Source: an uncultured Selenomonadales bacterium (GTDB taxonomy: Bacteria > Bacillota > Negativicutes > Acidaminococcales > Acidaminococcaceae). Taken from it: a DNA stretch of 64,000 nucleotides. Of this stretch, positions 46,285 to 51,809 are shown one piece after another. A program made the translations under genes and the position numbers. Below the pieces are notes generated by a model. It saw nothing but the letters and a program-made list of their open reading frames with translations. It ran no database searches and was not told the origin of the DNA. The stretch covers positions 1,216-65,215 of the forward strand of contig ONEW01000008.1 in assembly GCA_900316935.1 (NCBI GenBank). The letters run 5' to 3'. Every line of letters begins with the position of its first letter. The first letter of the stretch is position 1.

Positions 46285-47019
46285 CTAAAAGTACACTGCC
46301 GGAAAGGGAAACCCGGCCGGTTCCACGGCCACCACCGTGAGACGGCCGCTGGCGACACGGAATTTCACCTCAAGACCGGCGAACCTGAAGCCGTACACCC
46401 GGTCCGGGTCATCCTGGTAATGGGGCCGCGGGTCCTCCCGCAGCACACCCAGCAGGGCATCCCGTTCCGCTTCCGGTACCTGCGCCAGCAGAGCGGGCGG
46501 GAACACCACTTCCAATTCCCGGAAGGGCGTCGTGTCCGTAAATCCGCCCGTTGCCTCGCTGTGGCTGTCCACGGCCGGCAGGTAGGGCTTGATGTCCAGA
46601 ATCGGCGTGCCGTCCATCAGGTCGATGCCGGACACATGGAGCACCGGTCCTTCGGCCGTATCCAGTTCGACCCGTTCCAGGCGCACGGACGAAAGGCCGA
46701 TGCCGTTCGGCCGGAATGGCGAACGCGTCGCAAAGACGCCCATGCGCACGTTGCCGCCCAGCCGGGGCGGACGCACCGTGGCCGCCCAGCGGGAGCGCCG
46801 TGCTTCCGAAAAGTACCAGATGAGCCACAGGTGGCTGTATCCCCCGATACCGCGCAGCGCTTCCGCCTGTGCGTATTCCTTCGTGAAGACAATGCGCCCC
46901 GTCAGCGCTGGCACGACTCCGCTCTGCCGGGGAATCCCGAACTTCGTCGGAAACGCTGTCCGGATATGGGCGATGGGATGCATGACGATGGCCTCCCCGT
47001 CCTGTCGTTTGAAATCCAT
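46285..47019 (-). CDS. tsaA: tRNA t6A37 N6-methyltransferase TrmO/TsaA
   Basis: KFGIPRQSG, VRPPRLGG, GVFATRSPFRPN, DGTPILDIKPY, C-terminal DPRPHY. Confidence 0.92.
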   Translation of the reverse strand: MDFKRQDGEAIVMHPIAHIRTAFPTKFGIPRQSGVVPALTGRIVFTKEYAQAEALRGIGGYSHLWLIWYFSEARRSRWAATVRPPRLGGNVRMGVFATRSPFRPNGIGLSSVRLERVELDTAEGPVLHVSGIDLMDGTPILDIKPYLPAVDSHSEATGGFTDTTPFRELEVVFPPALLAQVPEAERDALLGVLREDPRPHYQDDPDRVYGFRFAGLEVKFRVASGRLTVVAVEPAGFPFPAVYF

Positions 47020-47204
47020 ACGGTCTTCCCGCCTTTCCTTTGTATCTCCTGGTTTATTATAGCCTGTCCGCTGATTCTGCAAAAGGGTATTAATTGTATG
47101 GAAATTGCGAAAAAGTCGTCATAAATAGTTACATTTCATAAAAACTTCACAAACATTACCGTTTTTGAACACAATTAAAATCGCGGATAAGGTATAATAA
47201 AGCT

Positions 47205-47416
47205 GTCAAACGAAGTTATATCCCCAATAACCGTTTGACGTATCCCCAGGTAATTTTGTGGCAGCGATGTTCCCCTACGTCGTTGCCGGAAAAACAGAAT
47301 TACCGATTGTTCTTCAATCATCTCCCTTATCCTTATGCTTCCCCAGCATAAGGACCCCTAAACCGAGATCCCTGAAAAGGGCAAAAAACTCCGTGCTTCT
47401 CCGCACGGAGTTTTTT
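47205..47416 (+). ncRNA. Candidate structured sRNA with multiple UCCCC hairpin loops
   Basis: TATAAT at 47193-47198, five hairpins plus a terminator, UCCCC at 47221, 47243, 47271 and 47340. G-U pairs support the plus strand. Confidence 0.75.
47383..47416. terminator. Bidirectional intrinsic terminator
   Basis: AAAAAACTCCGTGC-TTCTCC-GCACGGAGTTTTTT. Confidence 0.88.
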
Positions 47417-47500
47417 GCGTTTCAGGACATTTTTATACACAAAAATACATCTACTAACCAAAAACAGGTATTTTTTGTACTTACAATTTAAAATCCATTC

Positions 47501-47529
47501 CAAGGCGCCCGCCGGCGCCTTGTTTTTTT
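47501..47529 (+). terminator. Second plus-strand intrinsic terminator
   Basis: CAAGGCGCC-CGCC-GGCGCCTTG-T7. Confidence 0.8.
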
Positions 47530-47544
47530 GCGCCGCCGCACGGC

Positions 47545-47970
47545 TCAGCGCGTTCCCAGATAGATGTTGCTGCGGGCCACGCTCAGGTGCAGCTGGCGTT
47601 CCGCGAGGTCCGTAATGCGTTCCGGCGTGCGCAGTTTTTCAACCTGCAGTTTGAGACGCGCGTTGTCGTTCATCAATCGGCTTTCCTGCATCTGCAGCGT
47701 CACGAGCTGGTTGCCGGTCCGGACCAGTGCGGCGCTGCGGACGATGGCACCGACATACAGGAGGCCGAGGATGGCCGCCAGGACGATCAGGTGGCGGCGC
47801 AGCAGCTTATAGCTGCGTCCCGGGTTGCGGTACGGGACGAAGACGCCCGCTTCCTTGTCCCACATGACCATCTGCCCGCTCCGCAGGTTCTGCCTGCGCA
47901 CTTTCAGGGCCGTATTGCCGTCTGTTCCCGGAAATTCCCGATACGGTGCCGCATTTCGTATGCCCGCCAT
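47545..47970 (-). CDS. FtsL/DivIC-like bitopic coiled-coil protein
   Basis: Basic N-terminus, one TM, heptad coiled coil (LQMQESRLMNDNARLKLQVEKL), FtsL-like RTPERITDLAERQLHL end. ATG 47970 (GTG 47976 alternative). Confidence 0.68.
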   Translation of the reverse strand: MAGIRNAAPYREFPGTDGNTALKVRRQNLRSGQMVMWDKEAGVFVPYRNPGRSYKLLRRHLIVLAAILGLLYVGAIVRSAALVRTGNQLVTLQMQESRLMNDNARLKLQVEKLRTPERITDLAERQLHLSVARSNIYLGTR

Positions 47971-47972
47971 TT

Positions 47973-48422
47973 TCACACCTCTTTCCTATGATTCCGATGC
48001 AGGCTCTGCACATACAGCTCCAGCCATTTCTGCACGAAGGCCAGCTCTGCCGGCTGCAGTTCCTTCAGGTCCGCGACCACGCGGAGCATGTCCGGGTTAT
48101 CCCCCAGCATATCCCGGGCCGCCTCGCCACGGGTCCGCCCGCACACCAGCCACTCCAGGTCATACCCCATGTTGCCGATGGCTTCAATCACATCGACAGG
48201 GACGCCGCTGTCGCCGTGTTCGATGGAGGAAATCTGCGACTGGGTCCGCGCTTCCGCACGGGGTCTGCCCAGGGCCTTGGCCAGCGCCAGCGCAAATTCG
48301 CCCTGGTTCAAGCCTTCGCTGAGCCGGACCTGCCGGATGCGGTCATGGATGGTTTCCCCCCGCGCGGGACCGGCCTTCCGCTTCCGTGCGGCGGAAGGGG
48401 CCTGTCTTTTCCTCGTAACCAT
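47973..48422 (-). CDS. XRE/Cro-C1-type HTH transcriptional regulator
   Basis: DRIRQVRLSEGLNQGEFA...TQSQISSIEHG...YDLEWLVCG. GAGGAGG RBS. Confidence 0.85.
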   Translation of the reverse strand: MVTRKRQAPSAARKRKAGPARGETIHDRIRQVRLSEGLNQGEFALALAKALGRPRAEARTQSQISSIEHGDSGVPVDVIEAIGNMGYDLEWLVCGRTRGEAARDMLGDNPDMLRVVADLKELQPAELAFVQKWLELYVQSLHRNHRKEV

Positions 48423-48451
48423 AGCGGCAGCCCTCCTCGTTTACATTCCTT

Positions 48452-48509
48452 ATTATAATACATTATATTGTAAATTTCAATACTTTTTATATATTTTACA
48501 TGAAAATAT
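48452..48509 (-). promoter_or_regulatory. Sigma-A promoter of the XRE-ftsL-like operon with a nearby inverted repeat
   Basis: TTGAAA(48480)-N17-TATAAT(48457). ATATTTT-N5-AAAATAT at 48491-48509, in a very AT-rich tract. Confidence 0.65.
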
Positions 48510-48597
48510 CCTTATCTTTATTTGAATTCAATATATTTATATCAATTTTAAATTCATTTATATCTTATTTTTATATATCAGATTCTGACCGCAGGAC

Positions 48598-48634
48598 AAA
48601 AAAACGGCTGACGGACAACCTATCCGTCAGCCGT
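48598..48634 (-). terminator. Terminator downstream of tRNA-Arg
   Basis: 12-bp perfect stem ACGGCTGACGGA/TCCGTCAGCCGT followed by a T tract. A second hairpin lies at about 48655-48685. Confidence 0.8.
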
Positions 48635-48696
48635 ACAGATTTCGGCGGGGCGTAAAAAAGCAGGACCGCCTGTCCGGCGGTCCCGCGTATTTTTTC

Positions 48697-48771
48697 TGGT
48701 GCGCCTGAGAGGAATCGGACCTCCGCACCCGGTTCCGGAGACCGGTGCTCTATCCACTGAGCTACAGGCGC
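48697..48771 (-). tRNA. tRNA-Arg (anticodon CCG)
   Basis: GCGCCTG acceptor stem, TAGCTCAGTGGATAGAGC D-arm, CCGGT-CTCCGGA-ACCGG anticodon arm, T-arm GGAGGTCCGATTCCTCT, encoded CCA. Confidence 0.96.
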
Positions 48772-48880
48772 ATGTGGGATTACCATGCTATTATAGCACA
48801 GAACCGGCAGTGTCGCAAATATTTTACACACAGGCCGCCGGCATTTGTTATAATGAGAAAGATATCGAAAGGAGATTGCC

Positions 48881-49597
48881 ATGGAATACAGCGAAACGGA
48901 AGCCCATTTTCTGGTCTGTCCCCATTGCGGACATCGCTTTTTACAGAAACTGAAGGTGAATTTCAACACAGCGGATCACCCGGAAGACAAAGCCGCCGTG
49001 CGGAACGGCTCCGCCTTCGTCGTCCGCTGCCCCCGGTGCGGCCATGAGTGGCACCTGCACTACTCCTTCTTCTACGACCAGCCCGAAGACCTGCTGGCCG
49101 TCTACTGTCTCACGGAAGACAAGGATGCCGCGTCCGTCGCCGACGCCATCCGCCGCAACACACTGCCACCGCAGGCCCGGCCTTCCGTTGTGCCCCGGTG
49201 GCAGCAATACACGTGGCGCGTCGTCCGCACGGAAGAGGAATGCCGGGAAAAGCTCGCCATTTTTGATGCCGGCCTGGACGACCGCTGCATCGAACTCTTC
49301 AAAGTCTTCATTCTGAACCAGCTGCAGGCCCAGGCGCCAGACTTCCATGCCGACGAGGTCTGGTTCGCACGCAATCCGGACAAGCCCGCCGGGGACCCCG
49401 CCCCGTACGTGTTCACCATCGTGGACCTGAAGACCAACCAGGTGGCGCAGACGCCCTTCGACGATGCCATCCGCCCGCTCTATGACCAGATAGCCGTCAA
49501 TTTCGGCGACGACATGGAGCGCCTCTTCTCCCGGGAACCGGTCATCGACCTGACCTGGGCGCGGAACTGCCTGGACGCCATCCAGACCAAGAACTGA
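48881..49597 (+). CDS. CpXC-domain protein
   Basis: CPHCG and CPRCG knuckles with a Y-x-D motif. AAAGGAG RBS; hairpin at about 49615-49665. Confidence 0.8.
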   Translation: MEYSETEAHFLVCPHCGHRFLQKLKVNFNTADHPEDKAAVRNGSAFVVRCPRCGHEWHLHYSFFYDQPEDLLAVYCLTEDKDAASVADAIRRNTLPPQARPSVVPRWQQYTWRVVRTEEECREKLAIFDAGLDDRCIELFKVFILNQLQAQAPDFHADEVWFARNPDKPAGDPAPYVFTIVDLKTNQVAQTPFDDAIRPLYDQIAVNFGDDMERLFSREPVIDLTWARNCLDAIQTKN

Positions 49598-49695
49598 ACA
49601 AAAAAGCCAAGAAATAAGACAGGCGTCTGCCGAAGGAACCATTTCCCGGCAGACGCCTGTCCTGTCTTTGTCTTGTTGTTTGCAGCTGCCGTGCT

Positions 49696-50355
49696 TCAGG
49701 CCTTGTCGGCGGCAAAAAAGTCACGGAGTTCGGCCAGGGAATTAACGATCTGCAAGGGGCGGGCCGCTTCCAGCTCCGCCGGCGTGCCATACCCGTAGGT
49801 GACGCCGATGGCCGGCAGTCCCTGCTGGCGGGCACCGACGATGTCGTGGGATTTGTCCCCCACCATGATGGTGCCTGCGCGGTGGTCCGTCAGGCCCAGG
49901 CGGCGCAGGGCTTCGCCGATGACCTCATCCTTGTGCGAGCCCGTTTCGTCCATGTGGGCGCCGACCATCTCGGCAAAATAGCTGTCCAGGCCGAAATGCT
50001 GCAGAATGATGCGCACAAACCGTTCCGGCTTGGACGAAGCGACGCAAAGGGTGCGCCCCGAGTCCCGCAACCCCTGCAGGAGCCGGCCCACACCGGGAAA
50101 CGGTTTGTTCTCAAAAAGGCCGACCGTTTCATAGCGTTCCTGGAAATAGCCGGTGGCCTGCTTCGCCGTCGCATAATCATAGCCGGCGTATTGCATGAAC
50201 TGTTCCGTCAGCGGCGGGCCGATGAAGAGCTCCAGCTTCTTCAGGTCCGGTTCGGGCCGGCCCATTCTGGCCAGGGCGTACTGGACGGATTTGGTGATTC
50301 CCTCGCCCGACGCGGTCAGCGTGCCGTCGAGGTCAAATAAGATCGTATGGTACAT
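49696..50355 (-). CDS. HAD hydrolase (5'-nucleotidase/phosphoglycolate-phosphatase-like)
   Basis: LFDLDGTL, FIGPPL, ASSK, MVGDKSHD, VTYGYG. Confidence 0.88.
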   Translation of the reverse strand: MYHTILFDLDGTLTASGEGITKSVQYALARMGRPEPDLKKLELFIGPPLTEQFMQYAGYDYATAKQATGYFQERYETVGLFENKPFPGVGRLLQGLRDSGRTLCVASSKPERFVRIILQHFGLDSYFAEMVGAHMDETGSHKDEVIGEALRRLGLTDHRAGTIMVGDKSHDIVGARQQGLPAIGVTYGYGTPAELEAARPLQIVNSLAELRDFFAADKA

Positions 50356-50399
50356 AGGGAAATTTCCATTCCTTGTATCGGGATTGCCGCTCCTGCAGA

Positions 50400-51809
50400 T
50401 CACTCTCCCTGTACGACGGGCTTCCTGAAAGGTTCCTTGTCGACCAGGCGTACCACGAAGAGCGTGATGAGGCAGATGAGCCATTCAAAGTAGATGACGT
50501 GCGGGAAGATACGGATGGACGGAATGAAGGTCCAAGCCACAAGGCCAAGGATACCCACCAGGGTCGTCCAGAAGGCCGTGTTCTTGCGGCACAGGCCGGG
50601 TGCGTAAATAGTGCACAGGAAGACCAGTGTGAAGGCCGTCGTCAGGGACAGGCCGACCATCATCATTTTCACGATACCGACCATGTTGAAGGCCATCCAC
50701 AGCGTGACGATCCCAATCAACAGGACGATGACGCGGTTCGCCCGCAGGTATTTTTCCCGGGAGATGTCCGGATTGATGAACCGCTTGTAGATATCCTGCG
50801 AAACGAGCGTGCTGGCATTCATGAGGATGGTGCACGCCGTCGACACGTCGGCCGCCCACAGGGCTGCCAGCGTCAAGCCCGAAGAGAAGGGGTCCAGGCT
50901 CATGACGATCTGGGGCAGGGCCTTCGTCGGATTGATGTCAGGGAATTCCGCAATGGCCGCCATGCCCAGCATCGCAGACAGGAAGCCGATTGGGAAGATG
51001 AGCAGGCCCGCCAGGAAGAAGCCTTTGCGGGCGGAAGAGACGTCTTTCGCGCTGCAGGCGATCTGTACGGGTCCGGCAGAAATGGCCTGCGTCGTCATGA
51101 CCAGGATCCAGCCGAAGAGCATGATGCCTGTCAGCCCGCCTACGGGGCTCATCCAGTCCAGTCCGGACACGGCGGGCAGTTTCGCCTCGATGCCGGCCAG
51201 GCCGCCGTCACGGGCCAGGATGCGGAACAGGGAGTACAGGATGCCGAGGTAGATGATGGCTACGCTCAGCAGGTTCGAAAGGCCCGACGACCAGAGGCCG
51301 CCGATGGCCGTGATGCCGATGAAGACGATGGCGCTCGTAATCATGCCGGCGCGCATGGAGAACACATCCGGCATCAGGGACGACAGAATGGCGCCGCCCG
51401 CGACGTACTGCAGCGACGTGATGCAGATTAGGATGACGGACAGGCCGATGACACTGATGATGCGCGCCTTTTTGTCGTAGCAGCGCTCGAACAGCTCCGG
51501 AATCGTCGTGCAGTTGAGGGCGCGATACTTGCCGGCTGCCACGAGGCCCATGATGATGGCGCCGATGGCCCAGGCGCCGTTATACCAGCCGGCGGACAGG
51601 CCGAGCTTGGTGGCGCTTTCGGCCACGCCTACCGTAGAGGCGGCACCGACGGCCATGCCCGTGGTGCTGACAGCGACCAGCCAGGGGCCGAATTTGCGTC
51701 CGGCGAACAGATATTCCATAGGGTTCTTTTCCGCCCGGCGTTTGACATAGAACGAAACGCCGAACAGCAGGACGATGTACAAGAGGACGATGGCAAACTG
51801 TATGGACAT
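50400..51809 (-). CDS. Sodium:solute symporter (SSS) family transporter
   Basis: YLFAGRK, GAASTVG, TIPELFERCY, TAIGGL; about 13 TM. Confidence 0.92.
   Translation of the reverse strand: MSIQFAIVLLYIVLLFGVSFYVKRRAEKNPMEYLFAGRKFGPWLVAVSTTGMAVGAASTVGVAESATKLGLSAGWYNGAWAIGAIIMGLVAAGKYRALNCTTIPELFERCYDKKARIISVIGLSVILICITSLQYVAGGAILSSLMPDVFSMRAGMITSAIVFIGITAIGGLWSSGLSNLLSVAIIYLGILYSLFRILARDGGLAGIEAKLPAVSGLDWMSPVGGLTGIMLFGWILVMTTQAISAGPVQIACSAKDVSSARKGFFLAGLLIFPIGFLSAMLGMAAIAEFPDINPTKALPQIVMSLDPFSSGLTLAALWAADVSTACTILMNASTLVSQDIYKRFINPDISREKYLRANRVIVLLIGIVTLWMAFNMVGIVKMMMVGLSLTTAFTLVFLCTIYAPGLCRKNTAFWTTLVGILGLVAWTFIPSIRIFPHVIYFEWLICLITLFVVRLVDKEPFRKPVVQGE

Follow-up and report, generated by a model that had tools for sequence, protein, structure and literature searches.

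A predicted FtsL paralogue encoded with a helix-turn-helix regulator outside the dcw cluster of Succiniclasticum

Why would an ftsL-like gene be carried outside the dcw cluster of genes for division and the cell wall, coupled to a DNA-binding regulator of its own? The question is raised by a two-gene locus in a 64,000-nt stretch of contig ONEW01000008.1 (assembly GCA_900316935.1), hereafter the window, whose positions serve as coordinates throughout. On its minus strand, the locus encodes a helix-turn-helix (HTH) protein and a small membrane protein, called FtsL2 below. FtsL is normally a single-copy, unstable and division-limiting protein, the level of which is set via MraZ repression and RasP proteolysis in Bacillus subtilis. 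As a whole, the data make it very probable that the pair consists of an FtsL paralogue and a regulator. The fuller reading favoured here, of FtsL2 as an alternative or modulatory FtsL subunit under regulation of its own, is held with evenly divided confidence.

Family identity of FtsL2 and the canonical copy

An HMMER profile built from the FtsL2 relatives was used for a full search of 1.84 billion representative proteins and gave 181 matches in total, the FtsL2 family itself amounting to one representative (a single 50%-identity cluster). The best matches outside the family are all FtsLs of 116-142 aa, with E-values from 1e-25 to 1e-13, and carry the Negativicutes FtsL signature, i.e. an N-terminal MLARKY and a C-terminal LKGPERITsIAEkqLGMSVARSNIYVK. 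From the transmembrane (TM) helix to the C-terminus, the FtsL2 of the window is 46-52% identical to the dcw FtsLs of Acidaminococcaceae. These profile matches and identities uphold the original prediction of an FtsL-like membrane protein and, judged from the alignments, FtsL2 is a full-length FtsL paralogue derived from a Negativicutes dcw ftsL. In a neighbour-joining tree, FtsL2 is monophyletic on a long branch; no donor lineage was assigned, because placement among the dcw FtsLs is unreliable for such short proteins.

The predicted architecture comprises one TM helix (about residues 59-77), preceded by the basic residues YKLLRRH and followed by a long coiled coil and a C-terminal LRTPERITDLAERQLHLSVARSNIYL, which follows the pattern PERIT...LHL.VARSNIYL, while the cytoplasmic tail holds a conserved VMWDKEAGVFVPYR hairpin. 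The predicted topology, with a short cytoplasmic tail, a single TM helix, a periplasmic coiled coil and a C-terminal helix plus strand, is that of a bitopic, N-in protein, as in FtsL. The AlphaFold2 model (46-sequence alignment) has a mean predicted local distance difference test (pLDDT) score of 75.7, exceeding 95 through the helix core, and consists of a small cytoplasmic hairpin, helices 52-113 and 116-127, and strands 130-132 and 136-138. Searches with Pfam and NCBIfam matched FtsL2 to FtsL/DivIC models only, with no YneA (LysM) or SosA homology and no match to the FtsB/DivIC-specific NCBIfam models. Against the sequences of the PDB, a narrow FtsL2 profile returned chance matches only (factor H-binding protein), and a broad profile returned FtsB/FtsL chains at E-values of 0.2-0.8. 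A word-index search returned five close relatives only, all from Succiniclasticum. In public databases, the name of a family member depends on which hidden Markov model (HMM) cut-off it passes, and "cell division protein FtsL", "septum formation initiator family protein" and "hypothetical protein" are all in use.

For residue comparisons, the 37 alignment columns conserved at 60% or more in 42 dcw FtsLs served as the reference set. FtsL2 retains most of them, L89, N103, L106, L113, P116, R118, I119, A123, L127, N135 and Y137 among them. Its N-terminus departs from the set, MLA..Y being changed into MA[GDF][IV]R[NK], so that the MLARKY motif found in 70-83% of the dcw FtsLs is replaced. The glycine of the LGM motif, invariant in the dcw FtsLs (42/42), is a histidine in all four FtsL2 lineages; this Gly-to-His exchange, at FtsL2 residue 128 (window about 47587-47589), is the clearest single family-specific substitution. 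In the Escherichia coli FtsL, the residue at this position is a glutamine. The remaining deviating columns are few and correspond to conservative exchanges. In the tail of FtsL2, the segment VMWDKEAGVFVPYR..GRSY is conserved, its hairpin motif covering about 15-20 residues, and it is not wholly new, because a stretch related to it, GVYAPRVR...SYKLFRRR, is present in one of the dcw FtsLs (P0011).

The canonical ftsL of Succiniclasticum, encoding 127 aa, lies in the order mraZ-rsmH-ftsL-murE-murF-mraY-murD-murG-murC. Three HMMER matches were checked in their contigs (P0185, which is a Succiniclasticum sp. FtsL by its NCBI name, P0011 and P0012), and all three are found in this order, with a DUF1858 gene on the opposite strand ahead of mraZ. 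The FtsL2 gene is located elsewhere, its neighbours being tRNA-Arg, a CpXC gene, a small RNA (sRNA) and TrmO, and the dcw position is taken by P0185. As originally predicted, no mraZ, rsmH or penicillin-binding protein (PBP) gene was found among its neighbours by open reading frames (ORFs) and Pfam.

Five metagenome-assembled genomes (MAGs) provided FtsL2/dcw-FtsL accession pairs: MCI2098814/MCI2099261, MDY2869696/MDY2869628, MDY6302714/MDY6303114, MDY6345569/MDY6345219 and MCI6222325/MCI6223418. The FtsL2 and HTH accession numbers are adjacent, with the dcw FtsL number 68-1,093 away, and we infer from how protein accessions are issued that both copies are present in the same five MAGs. At least in the lineage of these MAGs, FtsL2 is accordingly an additional copy and not the sole ftsL of its genome. 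Contigs carrying each of the copies (L006 and L012) also share the sample ERZ28621277, and no further FtsL-like protein was found in the window or in about 150 kb of related loci.

In the dcw clusters of Succiniclasticum and its relatives (L010-L016), no class B PBP gene (ftsI) follows ftsL and no ftsW lies between murD and murG; the DUF1858 gene is always divergent and upstream of mraZ. The lack of ftsW and ftsI in these clusters agrees with the report that non-sporulating Negativicutes have no dcw-encoded SEDS and class B PBP genes (PMC10693644).

Concerning its distribution, the HTH-FtsL2 pair was found in four species-level lineages of rumen Succiniclasticum (Negativicutes, Acidaminococcaceae) only: that of the window, RUG113 (80% identity to the window), RUG048 (56%) and Succiniclasticum sp. 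UW_FK_SUCC1_1 (55%). Among the 185,579 species genomes of GTDB, only these last three lineages gave a match. The two genes occur together in every relative found, as the original prediction required, and gene order is the same in all of the at least 13 loci from the four lineages: SSF, HAD, CpXC (on the opposite strand), tRNA-Arg, HTH, FtsL2, sRNA, TrmO, thioesterase and onwards. The ratio of non-synonymous to synonymous substitutions (dN/dS) ranges from 0.20 to 0.43 for FtsL2 and from 0.12 to 0.28 for the HTH gene, with dS reaching about 1 between lineages; by these measures, the two have a long history in the clade and evolve under the constraint of purifying selection.

The GC content of the HTH and ftsL2 genes is that of their neighbours. 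Neither protein has phage matches, FtsL2 has no plasmid matches, no att-like repeats were found beside the tRNA, and the defence-system searches gave no PADLOC or Panacea match apart from a weak generic HTH match in PADLOC. Given the native GC content and the lack of phage, att or defence signs, nothing points to a recent mobile element. Two TrmO homologue contexts (L020 and L021) are not syntenic with the locus, TrmO being too conserved across Firmicutes to provide a view of the empty site. A metagenome scan with the 17-mer GGGAGATGATTGAAGAA of the sRNA gave one real locus (L067) among the matches listed, the others being unrelated.

Operon, promoter and regulator

The positions of the features are collected in the table below. 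The strong promoter that had been predicted, TTGAAA-N17-TATAAT, is present on the minus strand (48480..48452), with 11/12 consensus matches and a 17-nt spacer in a promoter scan. Eight promoter-like sites were found in the 1.9-kb region, vs. 2.1 expected from shuffled sequences, and the operon promoter scores best. Both of its hexamers and the spacer are nearly invariant in the alignment, whereas the remainder of the AT-rich region drifts. Upstream of the promoter, the GC content falls to 26-32% over about 120 bases, vs. 61-69% in the genes of the locus; this AT-richness is kept between lineages, the sequence itself loosely. The palindrome ATAAT-nn-ATTAT that overlaps the -10 hexamer has no mismatch in the window or in L001 and a single one in L005, such AT-rich palindromes being common by chance.

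Features of the HTH-FtsL2 locus and its surroundings, with their positions in the window
Feature	Position	Strand	Basis
-35 hexamer TTGAAA	48475..48480	-	promoter scan; invariant across four lineages (alignment)
-10 hexamer TATAAT	48452..48457	-	promoter scan; invariant in alignment A2
Candidate operator, palindrome ATAAT-nn-ATTAT over the -10 hexamer	48455..48466	both	inferred from sequence and alignment A2
AT-rich upstream region between tRNA terminators and promoter	48481..48603	-	composition profile
Shine-Dalgarno GAGGAGGG of HTH gene	48431..48438	-	sequence; AGGAGG invariant in A2
HTH gene, 149 aa	47973..48422	-	ORF, homology, dN/dS
FtsL2 gene, 141 aa (alternative GTG start at 47976)	47545..47970	-	ORF, HMMs, homologues
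GC-rich hairpin right after FtsL2 stop, T-run on plus strand	47501..47522	both	sequence, alignment
Bidirectional terminator (A-run, 8-bp GC stem, T-run)	47383..47416	both	sequence; conserved in A3
Convergent structured C-rich sRNA	about 47205-47417, abundant part 47233-47363	+	RNA contigs, fold
tRNA-Arg(CCG)	48697-48771	-	own promoter-like site
Tandem intrinsic terminators after tRNA-Arg	48686..48660 and 48634..48604	-	scan
CpXC-family zinc-ribbon protein gene, adjoining tRNA-Arg	48881-49597	+	PF14353, 94.8 bits

The original prediction also described a two-gene operon whose reading frames overlap by GTGA. Both ORFs were found, and when read from the GTG codon the second one (47545..47976) encodes 143 aa, the letters GTGA being common to the two. 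The ATG at 47970 is, however, the most likely true start of FtsL2; it lies two bases past the HTH stop (TGAAAATG), has a GAGG seven bases upstream, and is preferred because every homologue is 141 aa long and begins with MA. The operon therefore stands, the overlap being probably replaced by a 2-nt gap, and the coupling is tight with either start (2-nt gap or 4-nt overlap). In the RUG048 lineage (L005-L009 and L018; 9546-10046 in L005), the HTH gene has lost its stop codon and continues for 17 codons, to 166 aa, with an overlap of 46 nt into the start of FtsL2, the coupling being retained in an altered form.

Four metatranscriptomes of a mixed (enrichment) culture contain the region, contig depth being a poor measure of expression. 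In two runs (X27 and X28, with fragmentary contigs), the operon is covered from 47436 to 48436 at a depth of 3-10, and one RNA contig (47619-48003) bridges the gene junction. The HTH and FtsL2 genes are thus co-transcribed, at a low level similar to that of their neighbours. Coverage in X28 does not extend beyond 48436, which lies a few bases past the -10 hexamer in the direction of transcription, in agreement with the expected RNA start. At the other end, it extends to 47436, just short of the bidirectional terminator, and depth is 0 at 47369-47435; this terminator is likely the 3' end of both the operon transcript and the convergent sRNA. Since their orthologues are under purifying selection and both are covered in the metatranscriptomes, the two ORFs are not chance occurrences. 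The low RNA level, for a promoter with 11/12 matches, would be compatible with autorepression. No LexA box (GAAC-N4-GTTC, with at most one mismatch) was found in 46513-51704, and window-wide counts are those expected by chance.

The upstream protein had been predicted to be an XRE-type HTH protein. Its score on Pfam HTH_3 (PF01381) is 16.3 bits, below the 23-bit cut-off, but it aligns with the 434 repressor across the whole HTH (Cro/CI domain), where 10 residues inserted between helices 2 and 3 lower the score. It is also 35% identical (E-value 6e-15, residues 22-146) to WP_008540188 of Megamonas, which passes HTH_3 (36.8 bits). Both comparisons assign it to the Cro/CI (XRE) type, as predicted. 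Its layout consists of a basic N-terminal tail, the HTH with its insertion, and a C-terminal helical domain ending in a strongly conserved WLELYVQSL. Weak matches to PHROG repressor families were obtained, and a word-index search returned the genus-level family only.

The sole distant HTH homologue found is that of Megamonas, located on a Megamonas funiformis plasmid (NZ_CP048628.1; L142, 4962-5872) that abounds in conjugation genes and in toxin-antitoxin genes of the Fic/VbhA and HipA kinds. It shares the C-terminal L.P.E..F...WLELYV.SL domain, is without the HTH insertion, and is followed by a gene for a 172-aa lipoprotein without cytoplasmic part; no ftsL-like gene follows it. Because a homologue with the same domain is paired with such a lipoprotein, the C-terminal domain of the HTH protein more likely serves in dimerisation.

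Possible roles of the pair

Under the reading of FtsL2 as an alternative or modulatory subunit, the HTH protein would bind its own promoter, the candidate operator being ATAAT-nn-ATTAT, and keep an otherwise very strong promoter low. FtsL2 would insert N-in, like FtsL, and its coiled coil and C-terminal strand would take the place of FtsL beside DivIC/FtsB and FtsQ. A second, separately controlled FtsL-type pool with a different cytoplasmic tail would in this way tune septal cell-wall synthesis, and FtsL2 may influence division in either direction. This role is preferred to that of an inert decoy because the periplasmic part of FtsL2 keeps almost all of the FtsL-conserved residues.

Several points weigh against it. 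At the level of family assignment, the FtsL2 of the window scores just below two cut-offs, with 40.2 bits on TIGR02209 ftsL_broad (cut-off 42.45) and 24.1 bits on Pfam DivIC (PF04977, cut-off 28.9). On TIGR02209, its orthologues have 42.8, 42.1 and 38.3 bits (FtsL2 range 38.3-42.8) and the dcw FtsLs of the clade 38.4-48.2 bits, so that the cut-off splits both groups. Foldseek searches of the PDB with the FtsL2 model gave three matches only (8p1u_C, 8p1u_D and 8hhg_B), all of them FtsL/FtsB divisome chains and all non-significant (E-values 1.9-4.8). The co-occurrence of both ftsL copies in a same genome was seen in one lineage (P0003 type), not directly in that of the window. For the regulator, repressor activity is presumed of an HTH with an unusual 10-residue insertion, and the AlphaFold2 model of the protein is unusable (pLDDT 47). 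Finally, a dominant-negative FtsL2 could just as well be the outcome of the Gly-to-His exchange and the altered N-terminus, and what counters its assignment as the DivIC equivalent is only the phyletic pattern together with a sequence affinity to FtsL.

The dominant-negative alternative is the most serious one, although we regard it as rather improbable. Here, FtsL2 would be a mimic silenced by a private XRE repressor: once released, it would titrate DivIC/FtsB and FtsQ without being able to recruit or activate the septal synthase, and de-repression would stall division as a LexA-independent checkpoint. The cytoplasmic domain of the E. coli FtsL is required for FtsW recruitment, and in FtsL2 MLARKY is replaced and the LGM glycine exchanged for histidine in all four lineages. 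The near-consensus promoter combined with a low RNA depth is in keeping with repression, the promoter carries no LexA-type box, and a precedent exists in toxFtsL(D9), a protein with an FtsL-like domain that blocks divisome assembly on expression (PMC10440598). A decoy would, however, be expected to lose its activating surface, yet the whole coiled-coil/PERIT/ARSNIY region is conserved. Neither does the histidine need to be disabling, since E. coli has a glutamine at that place, and the resemblance of the P0011 segment tempers the novelty of the tail. If true, the locus would be a chromosomal, LexA-independent division brake derived by copying a subunit of the divisome itself, akin in mechanism to toxFtsL but domesticated in the core genome.

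A less probable alternative would have FtsL2 as the DivIC/FtsB of the clade, i.e. as the ordinary partner of FtsL, with the neighbouring regulator as the sole oddity. Orthologues are named "septum formation initiator family protein" by the NCBI pipeline, DivIC/FtsB genes normally lie outside the dcw cluster (PMC10693644), and two orthologues pass Pfam DivIC with 37.1 and 32.2 bits, the third having 27.1. The dcw FtsLs of the clade nevertheless score 27.0-28.1 bits on this model, which is not discriminating because they match it about equally. Moreover, the identity of FtsL2 to dcw FtsLs and its class-specific ARSNIY(V/L) C-terminus go far above the usual closeness between FtsL and DivIC, no FtsB/DivIC-specific NCBIfam model is matched, and every relative should have an essential partner, whereas the family is limited to four lineages.

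Still less probable is a toxin-antitoxin-like arrangement, in which FtsL2 would be a membrane toxin of the divisome and the HTH protein its antitoxin and autorepressor, the C-terminal domain of the latter binding the cytoplasmic hairpin of FtsL2. The locus does have the layout of such systems, being bicistronic with a small cytoplasmic partner encoded directly upstream and a single promoter. The HTH-first order, the 2-nt gap or overlap, the strong promoter and the narrow phyletic range are typical of type II pairs, and both VMWDKEAGVFVPYR of FtsL2 and WLELYVQSL of the HTH protein are strongly conserved. The toxFtsL(D9):PanA pair is also a validated one, its toxin with an FtsL-like domain causing filamentation (PMC10440598). 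Against this stand a single-copy, fixed core-genome position over deep divergence (dS of about 1), a native GC content, no phage or plasmid copies, no PADLOC or Panacea match, and no GAF domain or DUF4065 match in Pfam. The Megamonas homologue of the regulator, as mentioned above, is paired with a lipoprotein without cytoplasmic part.

Least probable of all is a signalling pair, with FtsL2 as a membrane sensor or anti-repressor that would report the envelope or divisome state to the HTH protein by sequestration or by regulated proteolysis, as in membrane anti-sigma factors: a soluble DNA-binding protein is coupled to a bitopic membrane protein with a conserved cytoplasmic motif, and in B. subtilis the intramembrane protease RasP has FtsL among its substrates, but the Megamonas regulator homologue is paired with an unrelated lipoprotein and no further target genes are identifiable.

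The alternative or modulatory subunit, which remains the favoured reading, can be set against known systems. FtsL2 shares with the canonical FtsL its size class, a single N-in TM helix, a leucine-zipper coiled coil, the C-terminal PERIT...ARSNIY and the range of HMM scores; it differs in being an extra copy outside the dcw cluster, with its own promoter and HTH partner, the Gly-to-His exchange, a replaced MLARKY, a conserved hairpin motif in the cytoplasmic tail and an occurrence in four lineages. Like DivIC/FtsB, it is a small bitopic coiled-coil divisome-type protein encoded outside the dcw cluster, and some of its orthologues pass PF04977, but its affinity is to FtsL and not to the FtsB/DivIC models, and its range is too narrow for a universal partner.

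YneA of B. subtilis and SosA of Staphylococcus aureus are SOS-controlled small membrane division inhibitors with a repressor encoded beside them. The likeness to them is one of logic only, i.e. a small membrane protein, an adjacent repressor gene and the late divisome as the presumed target. FtsL2 is unrelated to them in sequence, has no LysM domain and another size, and is itself homologous to the complex that would be targeted; its HTH regulator is not LexA, is without an S24 peptidase domain, and has no LexA box at its promoter.

With toxFtsL(D9):PanA (Ernits et al. 2023, PMC10440598), the locus shares a two-gene structure combining an FtsL-like membrane protein and a small cytoplasmic partner. 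That toxin is, however, a 281-aa protein with a GAF domain and partial FtsL similarity, and its antitoxin is of the Panacea (DUF4065) type, while FtsL2 is a complete, conservative and core-chromosomal FtsL with an XRE-type partner. The closest parallel in regulation is MraZ, which controls ftsL from the head of the dcw cluster (bioRxiv 10.1101/2022.02.09.479790): in both cases a DNA-binding protein is encoded just upstream, and FtsL supply limits division. MraZ differs in being of the AbrB/SpoVT type, conserved across bacteria and acting on the whole dcw operon, whereas here a private regulator is associated with a private FtsL. Full-text literature searches, of incomplete coverage, gave no paper on a second ftsL with a private regulator and nothing usable on DivIC/FtsB in Negativicutes.

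What would be new is a lineage-specific, separately regulated FtsL paralogue, its function being read from sequence. A natural second FtsL, with its own regulator, another tail and a glycine change, offers a comparison for finding the parts of FtsL by which the septal synthase is recruited and activated, and bears on whether a cell can regulate division by swapping or titrating divisome subunits. The organisms, uncultured rumen bacteria, are diderm Firmicutes, the division machinery of which is almost unstudied. Should FtsL2 be merely a redundant isoform, a modest annotation point would be left, namely that these genes are better named "FtsL paralogue" than "septum formation initiator".

Neighbouring RNAs and genes

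As had been predicted, the operon converges on an RNA with UCCCC motifs and adjoins tRNA-Arg. The sRNA has a contig depth of 264-2,100 over its abundant part, vs. 3-10 for the flanking genes, which makes it 25-500 times more abundant than the operon mRNA. Adapters abut position 47233, which suggests a defined, perhaps processed, end. Its fold is far more stable than those of shuffled sequences (z = -12.8), the UCCCC motifs lie in hairpin loops, and all four lineages have it conserved. A search of Rfam gave no match at threshold, the best being FsrA with 24 bits vs. a gathering score of 80; the features of the molecule suggest a C-rich regulatory RNA of the RoxS/FsrA type in Negativicutes. In a crude ranking of sRNA-mRNA duplexes, the FtsL2 start region came 25th of 58, with no sign of a preferred target.

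The proposal that operon, sRNA and tRNA-Arg form a single module found no support: tRNA-Arg and the sRNA each have their own promoter and terminator(s), and the co-occurrence of the three is ordinary synteny, because CpXC and TrmO are equally included in it. The tandem terminators that follow tRNA-Arg (48604-48686) insulate the operon from tRNA transcription, and the CpXC gene shows the same synteny in every lineage. An insertion of about 100 nt (47420-47530), located between the shared terminator and the stop codon of FtsL2, holds the hairpin at 47501-47522; it is missing from the L001, L004 and L005 lineages and is specific to the lineage of the window.

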